Shown here: positions 11,346 through 20,290 of the stretch, piece by piece
How the letters are laid out: every line of letters begins with the position of its first letter
How positions within the stretch are numbered: the stretch's first letter is position 1
Source of the DNA: Chthoniobacteraceae bacterium
Lineage (GTDB): Bacteria; Verrucomicrobiota; Verrucomicrobiia; Chthoniobacterales; Chthoniobacteraceae
Direction of reading: 5' to 3'
NCBI GenBank assembly: GCA_031409655.1
Contig: JANNXQ010000247.1
Location: forward strand, 1-29,264
DNA length: 29,264 nucleotides
The notes under the pieces: generated by a model
What the model was told of the DNA's origin: nothing
Database searches by the model: none
Seen by the model: the letters and a program-made list of their open reading frames with translations, nothing else
Translations under genes and position numbers: made by a program

Positions 11346-12521
11346 TCAGCGCTTCAGCGCATCGAGCAGCGATCCGCGGCCGGCGGCTTGCGTGCGCCAG
11401 AGCGGGCCATTGAGGTCGCAGTTGGGAAAGGGTGCGCCATCGCTCTTCGGGGTCTTCACATTGGCGAGCCGGAAGAGCGGCAGCTTTTCGGACTTCGTCC
11501 CGGATGGCTGCGCCATGAGAACCGCCCAAAAGCGCCCGCCCGGCCGCTCACCGATCACCACTTCCATGTCGGCCCAGGAGGTGCCGCTGAGGTGGACGCT
11601 TTCGCCGCGGATGTAACCCTTGCGCGGAAAGCCGGTGTATTGCGGCGGGATGACTTCTTCGGGCTGGAGCGCTGACGACGCGGCCCACGAGGCATCGAGC
11701 ACGAGCTTGCCGTTCACCTTGACGAGCAGCACGTCGTCGGCGGCGCCGATGAAGTGGTAGTTGCCTTCCTTCGGCGGCTGCACCTTGCCGCGATACACGG
11801 CCAGCCATTGCGCGGGCTTTACATTCTTTTCCACGTCGAACGCCTTCGGCGCCTCATCCGCGGACATATTGGGAATCATGAATTGCGCCGCCGACAGCGT
11901 GGCGGGTGCCTTGAAATATTTTGCCAGCTCGCTCTCGCGCATGCCGCCATCGACCCACTGGCGCACGATGCCGGTGTAGTTGTTCGCGTTCACGCCCGAC
12001 GCCTTCTTATCCTGCGTCTGCTTGAGATCGTAGAATGTGCCCGTGAGTCCGGTCCCCGCGCCGCGGAAGCCAAAGAAGCTCATCCCGCCTCCTCCTCCGC
12101 CGCCCCCGCCCATGCCACTGCCCATGCCGGCTCCGAAGCCCATGCCGGTGCCGATGCCCGCGCCACCCATCCCGGCCATCATGCCGGGGACCACGTTATT
12201 CGCGCTGGAGATGGTCGGCAGATCGGGCAGCGCGACCTTGGCGATCCCGGCGCTGACGATGCGCTTGGCCTGCGGCGGTGCGCCGCCGGTTTTCTTCTTC
12301 TGCGCCATCGAGACTTTGTGTTCCAGCGCACGCTTGCTGGGGTTCACCGACGGCGGCCCGCCTTGGAAGGTCACCTTCCGTTTCGCCTGGATGCGCTGGA
12401 CGATGAAGTAAGTCGCGCCCACGCCAAAGAGCAGATGCACGACGATGCTCACGAAGAGAAACTTGCTCGCGAGGATCTTCGCCCAAAGACCGCGACGTGG
12501 GTGGGAGCCGGAGTTACTCAT
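11346..12521 (-). CDS. TonB/TolA-type anchored protein with a C-terminal PA14-like domain
   Basis: TM helix FVSIVVHLLFG (SxxxH) and a Gly/Met linker, followed by GLTGTFYD...YRGKVQPPKEGNYHFIGAADDVLLVKVNGKLVLD (PA14 pattern). Confidence 0.7.
   Translation of the reverse strand: MSNSGSHPRRGLWAKILASKFLFVSIVVHLLFGVGATYFIVQRIQAKRKVTFQGGPPSVNPSKRALEHKVSMAQKKKTGGAPPQAKRIVSAGIAKVALPDLPTISSANNVVPGMMAGMGGAGIGTGMGFGAGMGSGMGGGGGGGGGMSFFGFRGAGTGLTGTFYDLKQTQDKKASGVNANNYTGIVRQWVDGGMRESELAKYFKAPATLSAAQFMIPNMSADEAPKAFDVEKNVKPAQWLAVYRGKVQPPKEGNYHFIGAADDVLLVKVNGKLVLDASWAASSALQPEEVIPPQYTGFPRKGYIRGESVHLSGTSWADMEVVIGERPGGRFWAVLMAQPSGTKSEKLPLFRLANVKTPKSDGAPFPNCDLNGPLWRTQAAGRGSLLDALKR
12160..12485. repeat. 326-bp direct repeat, copy 1 (constant N-terminal module)
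   Basis: Ungapped match to 13264-13589 (12 mismatches by hand count) and to 14299-14624 (about 17). Confidence 0.95.
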
Positions 12522-12530
12522 TTCCTCACG

Positions 12531-17420: not shown

Positions 17421-20290
17421 ACCGCCCCCCAATCCACGAGCATCTTCGCCGCTCGCTTAGTCTCCGGAAAATCCCGCAGCTTCTCATTGCGCATCATCTC
17501 CTTGAGGTGGCCCACGGCCTCGGGGCGTTTGCCGAGTTTATCAAAGCAATCCGCACTCCGCACATACGCCTTGGCCGCCCACGGCAGGAATTTCTGATAG
17601 GCCACAAACACGCGCTGGTAGTGGGCGACGGCTTCGGCCCAGCGGCCTTGCTGCGCCTCAATCTCGCCGAGGTAAAAAATCGCTTGCGCCGTCGATTCGC
17701 CGCGCCACTCGCGGATCCCCGCCACTTGCTCAAAGCCCTTCTTTGCCTCGGCATACTGTTTGAGTTCGAGCTGCGCGCGCGCCCGTCCGATCGTCGCCTC
17801 CTTGATCTTCGAGGCCGCGATCTCATCCGCGGCGTGGGTGAAAAGTTCGAGCGCCTTTTTGGGATCACCTGCCGCGAGCGCGAGTTCGCCGAGGCCGACG
17901 TAGGCATAGTCGAGGTAGTCGCTTTTCGGATAATCCTCGCGCAAATCTCCGAACATCCTGGCCGCTTTGTCGCGGTCGCCTTTGGCCAGCGCGTAGTCCC
18001 CGACGCTGGCGAGCAGCACCGGGCTCAGGGACTCGGGCGGAAAACGGTTCGCCAGTTCGATGAACAGATCCGGCGTCTCGGCTTCGCGCTTGAGCAGCTT
18101 CAGGAGTTCGATCTGGGTATAGACCAGCCGCGCTTTGCCCGTGTTGTTCGCAATTTCGTCGAGCGGTGCGACCTGCTTCTTCAGCTCCGCCACAGCATCG
18201 TAGGGTGGCAGCGGCGCCGGGGTTTCGGGCGGGGGTAAAGGTGCGGCACCGGGCGCGGCAGTCGGCGCGGGTGGCGGTGTTGCGGGCCGCGGACGCTTCG
18301 AGCAGAGCTGCGCGAGTTGCTGGAGCAGTTGCTCGACGGCCTCGCGCTTCGGCTCGTTCAGGTAACGCTTGAGCTGCTCGACCAGGAACGTCTTCGCCTC
18401 CTCGGTCTTACCCTCGCGCGCCTTCGCCTTGCCGATCCAAAACATCGCCGCGACCACCGTCGGATGATCCGGCTTCGCCTGCACGAACTCCTCGAACATC
18501 TGCGCGACCTCGGGCCACTTGCCCTGCTTCTGGAGTTGCTTGCTTGCCTCGAAGATCGCGTAGTTCAGCACCTCGTCGCTGGTCGCGCGCTGATACGACT
18601 GCTGGTACGCTTCCGCCGCCTCCTCCGTCCGGCTCTCCGCCGCGAGCGCATCGCCGAGCAGGGAAAAAACCTCACCCGCGATGAGATCGTTCGGATACGC
18701 CTGCTGCCAGGCCTGGGCATCGGCGATAACCTCGTTGTAGAGCGACGCCGCGTATTTGCAGACCATCACGCGGTAACCTGCATCGCCCGCAAAGGCGCCC
18801 CCTTTATACTCCTGGAGATAGGCATTCAGCTTACCCAGCGCCTCTTCGTATTTCCCCTGAAAGAGCAGGGTCAGCGCCTCGCGATACGCAGCCTCCTCGG
18901 CAAAGCCACCCTTCGGAAAATCCTTCACATATCGCGCGTATTGCTTCCGCGCTTCCTCGAACTCGCCCTGCATGAACTGCGCATTCCCCAGCAGGAAACG
19001 CATCTGCTCGCGGAACTCACTGTCCGGCTGCTGCTCGAGCATCATGCCGAAGAAGGACACCGCACTTTTCGGATCGTTATTCTGTAACGCGGACGCACCC
19101 TTGAGATAACCGACGGTCGCGGCGTTCGGCCCTTTCGGATACTTCGCGAGATACTCGTCGCAGAGCTTCAGCGTGCGCGCGGAGCGATTCAGATCGGCGT
19201 AACACACCAGCGTCGAATAGAGCGCCGGTTCGCTTTCCTTCGCCTCGGGGTGCTCGGTCAGCAGCCGGTCAAAGGCCACGATCGCCTCCCACTTCTTATC
19301 CCAGTCGTACCAGACCTTGGCATTGCGGAAGAGGATCGCCGGCCAGTAGTCGGGCAGCTTCGAGAATTCCTCGAGCAACTGCTTCGCCTGCTCCTGCTGC
19401 AGCTCGATCTCCCGGTTCGCGCCCGTCGCCGCCAAAAAGGCCTGCGGATTGCCTCGCGCGGCGTCGAGATTGGCCTGCATCCGTTTGTCCATCGCCGCGA
19501 TGCGCGCGCCTTGGAAAGCGAGCACCTGGTCGCGCGTCCGCACCACCCGGTAAGCCGCCAGCGCCTGGGTGTAACTCTTCTTCTCCGCGAGTTCGTCGCC
19601 GAGCTTCACGGTCAGCGCATTCAGCGCGACCACGTTGTCCACCAGCGCCACGCGGGCGTGCAGGGTGTTGATCAGGGCGAGCACTTTGTCGGACTCGTTC
19701 TTCGTCAGGTAAAGTTCGGCGAGTGTCACCGCGCTCGTCGCCTGCACCGGCGATTTGATCTCCGGCTGGATGAGCTTCTCGATGACCCGGATCTGGTCGT
19801 CGGGCCGGTTGAGCTGCTTGAAGCATTCCGCCTGCGCCGCCAGCGCCTGATCGCGCAGGGCCGGCGCCGACTCCAGCGCCGCTAAGGCCTTCGCCGCACC
19901 GTCGTAGTCCTTGCTCAGAAACATCGCCCGCGCGCTGGCCAGCCGCGCTTCCCCGACCCGCTCCGCCTGCGGATACTGCGTGAGGTAGGTCTTAAAGGTC
20001 GCGATCGCCTTGGCGTAGTTCTTCCCATTGAAGTACGCCGCGCCGAGCGTGAAGAAGAGCGGTCCGATCTTCGCTCGCTCGACCGGATCGGTAATCGTCG
20101 CAATCACCTTCTCGAGCCCCTCCGCCGCTTCCGTCCACTTGCCCGCATTGAACGCCGCTAGGGCCGCATTGTGCATCGCCGCGAGTTCCATCGCCGCCGA
20201 TTGCTGTAGCGCCGGCTGCTGCGCCGATCCAGGCGCGATCCAGGCCAGGAGCGCTGCGGCAAAGAGCGGGGGGAGTGAAGTGAGGCGCAC
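17417..20290 (-). CDS. Large exported TPR-solenoid protein (about 957 aa)
   Basis: Many TPR/BamD-like repeats (YLTQYPQ, LLTEHPE, YLAKYPKG, YVKDFPKG, LREDYPKS). Probable GTG start at 20290 gives a signal peptide (MRLTSLPPLFAAALLAWIAPGSA|QQ). Internal Pro/Ala linker. Confidence 0.8.
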   Translation of the reverse strand: MRLTSLPPLFAAALLAWIAPGSAQQPALQQSAAMELAAMHNAALAAFNAGKWTEAAEGLEKVIATITDPVERAKIGPLFFTLGAAYFNGKNYAKAIATFKTYLTQYPQAERVGEARLASARAMFLSKDYDGAAKALAALESAPALRDQALAAQAECFKQLNRPDDQIRVIEKLIQPEIKSPVQATSAVTLAELYLTKNESDKVLALINTLHARVALVDNVVALNALTVKLGDELAEKKSYTQALAAYRVVRTRDQVLAFQGARIAAMDKRMQANLDAARGNPQAFLAATGANREIELQQEQAKQLLEEFSKLPDYWPAILFRNAKVWYDWDKKWEAIVAFDRLLTEHPEAKESEPALYSTLVCYADLNRSARTLKLCDEYLAKYPKGPNAATVGYLKGASALQNNDPKSAVSFFGMMLEQQPDSEFREQMRFLLGNAQFMQGEFEEARKQYARYVKDFPKGGFAEEAAYREALTLLFQGKYEEALGKLNAYLQEYKGGAFAGDAGYRVMVCKYAASLYNEVIADAQAWQQAYPNDLIAGEVFSLLGDALAAESRTEEAAEAYQQSYQRATSDEVLNYAIFEASKQLQKQGKWPEVAQMFEEFVQAKPDHPTVVAAMFWIGKAKAREGKTEEAKTFLVEQLKRYLNEPKREAVEQLLQQLAQLCSKRPRPATPPPAPTAAPGAAPLPPPETPAPLPPYDAVAELKKQVAPLDEIANNTGKARLVYTQIELLKLLKREAETPDLFIELANRFPPESLSPVLLASVGDYALAKGDRDKAARMFGDLREDYPKSDYLDYAYVGLGELALAAGDPKKALELFTHAADEIAASKIKEATIGRARAQLELKQYAEAKKGFEQVAGIREWRGESTAQAIFYLGEIEAQQGRWAEAVAHYQRVFVAYQKFLPWAAKAYVRSADCFDKLGKRPEAVGHLKEMMRNEKLRDFPETKRAAKMLVDWGAV

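Follow-up and report, generated by a model that had tools for sequence, protein, structure and literature searches.

An eight-gene ExbB–ExbD operon of Verrucomicrobiota with three arms on one His-anchored module and a core related by sequence to Akkermansia MUL1

The window analysed here is a 29,264-nucleotide stretch of the genome of a Chthoniobacteraceae bacterium (GenBank assembly GCA_031409655.1, contig JANNXQ010000247.1), and it holds an eight-gene operon that is real and conserved across Verrucomicrobiota. The operon encodes an ExbB–ExbD1–ExbD2 motor, two tetratricopeptide repeat (TPR) proteins and three membrane-anchored proteins, here called arms, which share one His-anchored module and end in von Willebrand factor A (vWA) or PA14 heads. 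The arms are very probably force transducers of this motor. At the level of sequence profiles and gene content, the five-gene core (TPR, TPR, ExbB, ExbD, ExbD) is homologous to the MUL1 locus of Akkermansia, and proton-driven glycan uptake, to which we give slightly less than an even chance, is the job we favour for the operon. Its features, in gene order and with transmembrane abbreviated as TM and the metal-ion-dependent adhesion site as MIDAS, are as follows.

17417..20290, minus strand: large TPR scaffold of 957 aa (Pfam TPR; start GTG 20290), Mul1A homologue by profile
17315..17402, no strand: heptamer-unit inverted (hairpin) repeat at the TPR–TPR junction, with 48 pattern matches genome-wide
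16482..17345, minus strand: small TPR protein with an N-terminal beta domain and TPR repeats (start at 17420, 17345 or 17324), Mul1B homologue by profile
15621..16460, minus strand: ExbB/TolQ-type motor subunit (PF01618; motif counts; tree)
15120..15578, minus strand: ExbD1, TM Asp21 (PF02472)
14666..15115, minus strand: ExbD2, TM Asp23, a paralogue distinct from ExbD1 (PF02472)
13635..14669, minus strand: arm 1, constant module (14205–14636) and vWA head with intact MIDAS
12531..13625, minus strand: arm 2, constant module (13167–13601) and divergent vWA head with DxSxS
11346..12521, minus strand: arm 3, constant module (12066–12497) and PA14 head with Asp262–Asp263 (PF07691, 26.8 bits, above cut-off)

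All eight genes lie on the minus strand, running from 20290 to 11346 where an earlier note, made from the sequence alone, had placed them, and their Pfam matches in gene order (TPR, TPR, MotA_ExbB, ExbD, ExbD, VWA, a weak VWA at E 0.007, and PA14) agree with the families that it had assigned. Its statement that neighbouring genes overlap or lie at most 42 nt apart holds if the small TPR gene starts at ATG 17420, which gives gaps of −4, 21, 42, 4, −4, 9 and 9 nt; with the start at 17345, judged by eye to be the better fit to a signal peptide, the first gap becomes 71 nt and is occupied by the hairpin repeat. This repeat consists of tandem heptamers plus their inverse, sits where the small TPR gene begins, and is no part of the machine. 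A signal peptide is also probable, by eye, in the large TPR protein, for which a 1138-aa reading from ATG 20833 was dropped because homologues mostly measure 920–1050 aa and the extension resembles non-coding sequence. No sigma-70 promoter or terminator was found in 10900–11400.

The gene set is conserved as a unit. A search with arm 1 matched 28 of 61 relatives, and the loci around module matches keep large TPR, small TPR, ExbB, ExbD1, ExbD2 and arm in several classes, which bears out the expectation of the earlier note that these genes would travel together. Two ExbDs and an arm follow 52 of the 77 ExbB genes in the loci examined, most of which had been picked for having an arm. When 80 loci were instead picked by ExbD2 likeness alone, the next gene was a module gene in 28, a head without a recognised module in 3, a large TPR gene in 9 and nothing recognised in 34, with no room for a further gene in 6; a check of 17 genomes from the 40 loci that lack a recognised follower showed the module elsewhere in every one (E ≤ 3e-15). 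Strong small-TPR and strong module matches occurred together in 26 of the 61 relatives, were both absent from 31 and occurred singly in 4, with thresholds set after viewing and profiles partly built from these same genomes. Of 201 genomes sampled from the phylum, 67 match the module profile, which also matches 887 clusters at 50% identity; Chthoniobacter, Prosthecobacter, Verrucomicrobium, Opitutaceae and Tichowtungia records are among the named carriers. With 17, 17 and 23 module matches, genomes G161, G193 and G266 seem to have large sets of arms.

The motor residues are intact. The TM Asp that the earlier note had seen in both ExbDs is present, and all 46 aligned homologues of each ExbD share it. 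The operon ExbB keeps pore residues Thr170 and Thr202, the TM1 docking residue Ser62 and the TM3 Pro, with Leu at the Trp38-equivalent position, and the two pore-Thr motifs are matched in 48 and 52 of 53 ExbBs. According to the available text of Celia et al. 2025 (PMC12215075), TonB Ser16 and His20 touch ExbB Ser34 and Trp38, linked to Pro190; operon ExbBs carry the docking Ser, at the site as defined there, in 51 of 52 cases and never lack the TM3 Pro (52 of 52). A quick tree was built from ExbBs only, with 60 rows of which 27 were operon ExbBs left after random thinning. In it, operon and MUL1 ExbBs fell on one branch (Shimodaira–Hasegawa-like approximate likelihood ratio test, SH-aLRT, 97) that excludes this genome's Ton-type ExbBs, and the MUL1 ExbBs formed a long branch inside this joint clade. 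No relative of the operon ExbB was found on viral contigs. Two further motor loci were seen in this genome (G000). One is a second small TPR–ExbB–ExbD–ExbD set with no arm gene behind it (contig C214, 35877–38532), whose ExbB belongs to the operon clade. The other (C214, 5198–9078) belongs to a separate conserved ExbB–ExbD–large TPR operon, also found at loci L239, L243, L246, L251 and L252, which the quick tree places as sister to this motor clade.

Each arm consists of an S-x3-H helix and a Gly-rich linker of 107–108 aa (22–24% Gly, 7% Pro), followed by the head. The S-x3-H motif that had been noted in the TM helix of three single-pass proteins is present in all three anchors and is rare by chance: of the 647 open reading frames (ORFs) of this genome with a hydrophobic helix at the N-terminus, 10 have it, among them four module proteins and two TonB-like genes adjoining other ExbB genes. 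Arms 1–3 share about 430–450 nt of 5' sequence at 91–93% identity, and 24 of the 29 differences between the modules of arms 2 and 3 fall at third codon positions; the module is accordingly a recent triplication under purifying selection. Among the best 150 module homologues, the His is kept in 149, the Ser at −4 in 136 and an Ala at +7 in 146. Only the S-H half of the SHLS motif is therefore retained, H+7 being Ala and H+11 Ile, with the Leu and second Ser lost; these two positions are less conserved in Ton as well, as described in the text of PMC12215075. Module homologues also conserve Phe, Glu-His, Pro, Arg and Leu-Pro in the linker ahead of the Gly tract, and alternating patterns occur at H+20..23 (Phe in 145 of 149), H+41..43 and H+66..70, where model confidence is low.

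The module is constant and the heads are interchangeable, with PA14, vWA, alpha/alpha barrel and DUF4159 domains all occurring behind it. Among the same 150 homologues, 78 end in PA14, 38 in vWA, 10 in an alpha/alpha barrel and 6 in other heads, and 18 are cut short. Elsewhere in this genome, orphan arms carry a barrel head (C273, 69946–71403) and a DUF4159 head (C195), and the second motor set on C214 may serve them. In two Planctomycete loci (L317 and L331) the gene after ExbD encodes a 1240–1300 aa membrane protein that has the same barrel head as the arms and, read by eye, propeller-like repeats. The DxSxS motif is intact in both vWA heads of the window, which are 33% identical to each other, and in 29 of the 38 vWA-headed homologues. 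AlphaFold2 (AF2) models the head of arm 3 with confidence and its linker as disordered, at low predicted local distance difference test score (pLDDT). In fold, the head is best matched by PA14 domains that bind sugar, those of RTX adhesins and Epa/Flo lectins (Z 13.1, root-mean-square deviation (rmsd) 3.2 and 164 aligned residues against 6m8m). A paired-Asp site, which we take to be the calcium and sugar site of PA14 domains, reads DD in 56 and DN in 17 of the 78 PA14-headed homologues (73 together), and Asp262–Asp263 of arm 3 is accordingly a predicted calcium-dependent sugar site. A PDB sequence search returned nothing significant (module best E 0.06, arm 3 best E 0.55, Epa9 PA14 0.86), and Atlas matches were hypothetical Verrucomicrobiota clusters only, with PA14 in 10–13% of members.

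The operon resembles Ton and Tol-Pal systems in its ExbB/ExbD motor residues, its Ser-x3-His helix and the ExbB TM1 Ser and TM3 Pro, and differs from them in having two different ExbDs and no TonB_C, TolA-III, receptor, TolB or Pal in the scanned ORFs. The absence of a TonB_C domain and of a TonB-dependent receptor, claimed from the start, held across the 27 window ORFs scanned; elsewhere the genome has two TonB_C genes on other contigs, both in ExbB–ExbD operons of their own, and six receptor matches above cut-off. Bat/MoxR-vWA operons place a MoxR AAA+ ATPase beside vWA and TPR genes, and no AAA match was found among the scanned window ORFs. A match to an already characterised Ton, Tol or Bat system, which the earlier note had allowed for, was thus checked, and the marker genes of Ton, Tol-Pal and Bat/MoxR-vWA are not among these ORFs.

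The system seen in this DNA is the class described by Williams-Jones et al. 2025 (PMC12204202), and the operon core is not new. The text of that paper predicts vWA force transducers in PVC bacteria behind TPR, tolQ-like and paired tolR-like genes, composed of a TM helix, a disordered linker of about 100 aa and a vWA domain; it reports AlphaFold3 (AF3) docking via the His, gives no known function and guesses at gliding. Arms 1 and 2 match this three-part layout (linker 107–108 aa), the arms of the operon keep the Ser and His of SHLS, and their position behind TPR, tolQ-like and paired heterologous tolR-like genes is matched as well. Where the class has a motor box, a beta strand following the TM helix, the arms show the alternating patterns given above, none of which fits the full D-box pattern. 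Arm 3 departs from the class in having a PA14 rather than a vWA head, and the operon differs in its three tandem arms on a near-identical module, its two distinct TPR genes and its Gly-rich linker. The module profile also matches two PA14-headed arms of Tichowtungia sp. in the same gene order (L311, E 5e-11; L318, E 2e-10). The main text of PMC12204202 mentions no PA14, lectin, kinase, Akkermansia or mucin, although its figures and spreadsheets may show more, and our literature searches brought up no paper combining PA14, ExbD and Verrucomicrobia. What is added here to that text is the swappable heads, the sugar-binding fold of PA14, the homology to MUL1 and the His-less arms of MUL1 genomes. 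The proposal of the earlier note that this is a proton motor with TonB-like arms ending in vWA or PA14 heads fits the observed conservation and matches the AF3-based prediction; the docking itself we infer.

MUL1 of Akkermansia muciniphila is said to have been characterised genetically by Davey et al. 2023. In the available texts it is described as a mucin-import locus, with mul1A called a mucin transport gene (PMC12570417), nine carbohydrate-active enzymes (CAZymes) are associated with Mul1A (bioRxiv 2024.03.27.586211), and ExbD/B are given as expected MUL1 components (PMC13174399 supplement); our literature searches brought up no paper whose terms join MUL1 with ExbB or ExbD. We compared protein-family profiles with HHalign, using an unrelated TPR family as control. 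The large TPR family matched Mul1A with probability 100 (E 2e-50, 868 columns), a match that discriminates only moderately because the control reached E 3e-38, and the small TPR family matched Mul1B with probability 99.0 (E 3.5e-18, 247 columns; control E 6e-9). Both control values were obtained against the same profiles; with Mul1A and Mul1B themselves the control family gave far lower scores. Taken alone, the N-terminal beta domains of small TPR protein and Mul1B gave no significant alignment (probability 7.6, E 0.005).

The likeness to MUL1 lies in five shared gene types, in the homology of both TPR proteins at profile level and in the joint ExbB clade. The operon is nonetheless not a member of MUL1: its small TPR protein scores 25 bits against the Mul1B model NF052542, below the cut-off of 75, and its TPR genes come first and its arms last, whereas MUL1 reads ExbB–ExbD–ExbD–Mul1A–Mul1B. 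The Mul1B cut-off was passed in 17 of 201 phylum genomes, all of one family, and in the 9 of these whose loci were examined ExbB and two ExbDs stand just upstream of the Mul1A–Mul1B pair. Genome G139 holds both loci, so the operon and MUL1 are paralogous. G139 (L103), Rubritalea marina DSM 17716, a Rubritalea metagenome-assembled genome (MAG) and a Luteolibacter MAG (L316:6594–12524, L323:6636–12665 and L324:230–6184) carry the MUL1 order, with Mul1B at 207–242 bits against the cut-off of 75; according to the available text of PMC13174399, whose genome set may differ from ours, aquatic Akkermansiaceae have neither Mul1B homologues nor MUL1 synteny. The earlier statement that no characterised system has this composition must be narrowed, since a vWA class was described in 2025 and the core is homologous to the reportedly characterised MUL1.

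We propose that each arm would dock on ExbB through its Ser and His in the manner of TonB, and that the ExbD pair would draw the linker in. The PA14 head would bind sugar and the vWA heads protein via their MIDAS, so that the arms would pull either on glycans or on proteins, carriers or outer-membrane partners, that the periplasmic TPR scaffolds hold; a change of head would then change the substrate with the motor constant. The coupling of arm to motor is argued for by the kept ExbB Ser and Pro, the conserved gene order and the His docking reported from AF3 in the text of PMC12204202. Glycan uptake is suggested by PA14 being the commonest head, with a sugar-binding fold and a paired-Asp site kept in nearly all cases, and by MUL1 being the only relative with genetics.

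A series of observations weighs against this proposal. The operon has no known substrate, outer-membrane channel or phenotype; of its three heads two are vWA, and barrel and DUF4159 heads also occur on the module, none of them tied to glycans; and a cytoplasmic SAM domain in 31 of the top 150 homologues, about one-fifth, suits signalling. The Trp38 equivalent is missing from 52 of 52 operon ExbBs (Trp stands in that column in only one of the eight ExbBs of this genome), and no linker stretch matches the full D-box pattern as given in the available text of Loll et al. 2024. None of three congeners gave strong matches to these queries, making the operon accessory. Flanking genes are not conserved over 177 loci (aconitase in 1, a generic sulfatase in 7, other flanks in 0), and there is therefore no glycan-locus context. 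Finally, the different gene order of MUL1, its lack of an in-locus arm and its long branch mean that function need not carry over.

A role in envelope biogenesis, in which the TPR scaffolds would chaperone outer-membrane or secreted proteins, the arms would power their assembly or export and the mucin defect of MUL1 would be indirect, is unlikely in our view. Sub-cut-off matches of the large TPR protein to BamD and PorW/SprE models, the protein-binding nature of a vWA-MIDAS head and the second motor set on C214 speak for it, as does BamD being the top Foldseek match of the small TPR protein (AF2 model, mean pLDDT 94). These TPR matches are, however, generic (TM-score 0.31, rmsd 15), Foldseek having returned generic TPR matches only. 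The operon has a patchy distribution and did not turn up in three congeners, which a core envelope machine would not be expected to show, and PA14 heads predominate among the top module matches.

Less likely still, the arms could be motor-coupled sensors whose heads detect periplasmic glycans or proteins, with the His helix relaying the signal to SAM or kinase domains in the cytoplasm. Cytoplasmic N-terminal extensions occur in 37 of the best 150 module homologues (31 SAM-like, 4 with a Ser/Thr kinase), and the closest homologues of arm 1 (90%, 72% and 71% identity) have SAM; the extension is nevertheless absent from 113 of the 150, and the arms of the window have only about 10–20 cytoplasmic residues and no SAM or kinase domain. 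Four proteins (P0009, P0017, P0021 and P0130) carry a Ser/Thr kinase, in three together with SAM, before the His helix and a PA14 head; such kinase-bearing arms are possible motor-coupled receptor kinases.

The AglRQS–Glt–CglB machinery of Myxococcus has one TolQ-like and two TolR-like subunits with TPR and vWA components. The operon shares this make-up, with vWA or adhesin-type PA14 heads, as an analogy of composition only, and differs in that its vWA domains are fused to an inner-membrane anchor. Surface adhesion or gliding with a vWA adhesin, as suggested by Williams-Jones et al., whose text mentions the Myxococcus gliding machinery (PMC12204202), ranks lower again in our estimation: the heads, tied to the inner membrane by 107-aa linkers, would stay in the periplasm, no outer-membrane track genes lie in the operon, and the homologous MUL1 motor belongs to A. 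muciniphila, described as non-motile in the available text of PMC12418764. An ordinary Ton motor using a TonB encoded elsewhere, with the anchored proteins as unrelated passengers, is very improbable, even with two TonB_C genes and receptors elsewhere in the genome and 34 of 80 related loci having no arm gene directly behind, because those TonB genes sit in their own ExbB–ExbD operons, their ExbBs fall outside the operon clade, and arm and core co-occur tightly.

None of the MUL1 loci examined has an arm gene. Elsewhere in MUL1 genomes, however, there are orphan single-pass proteins that bear the PA14, barrel or vWA heads of the arms and a module related to that of the operon (HHalign probability 90, E 2e-6), with no His in its helix. 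A profile of these His-less arms, built from five of the 17 MUL1 genomes, matched 17 of 17 at E ≤ 7e-22 and only 4 of 184 others, weakly. The MUL1 ExbBs have the docking Ser in 0 of 12 and the Pro in 2 of 12; loss of the His and loss of the Ser agree, but they are one lineage and one event. We tentatively suggest, as a doubtful extension, that the operon and MUL1 could be two branches of one Verrucomicrobiota-wide proton-driven glycan importer in which swappable arms replace TonB, with the orphan His-less arms as the missing MUL1 transducers and their His loss matched by the ExbB Ser loss. The tables of Davey et al. 2023 may already list such arms among mutants or Mul1A partners.

The rest of the window holds, on the minus strand, a serine beta-lactamase-like domain fused to a NamZ exo-beta-N-acetylmuramidase (456–2894), a Verru_Chthon cassette A–D of pilin-like genes (2845–8066; all below curated cut-offs, and not conserved beside the operon), an SH3-like probable lipoprotein (9008–9577) and an aconitase-family large subunit (9598–10968). 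Beyond the operon lie a minus-strand frame without a family match that resembles joined fragments (20391–21218), part of it resembling a HEPN/nucleotidyltransferase pair, a plus-strand sulfatase (21239–22837), and minus-strand genes for a GlnD-like nucleotidyltransferase (24242–26878) and a LamG lectin-like protein (27751–28602).

In the texts consulted, vWA force transducers were predicted in 2025 without a function, and MUL1 has a mucin-uptake phenotype with no transducer named. Joining the two would give a candidate function to a motor whose arm module occurs in 67 of the 201 sampled genomes of the phylum, and would name candidate genes by which Akkermansia may couple the proton gradient to mucin import; both are testable because transposon mutants of A. 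muciniphila exist. The finding also bears on polysaccharide uptake by aquatic and soil Verrucomicrobia and questions the published view of MUL1 as gut-specific.

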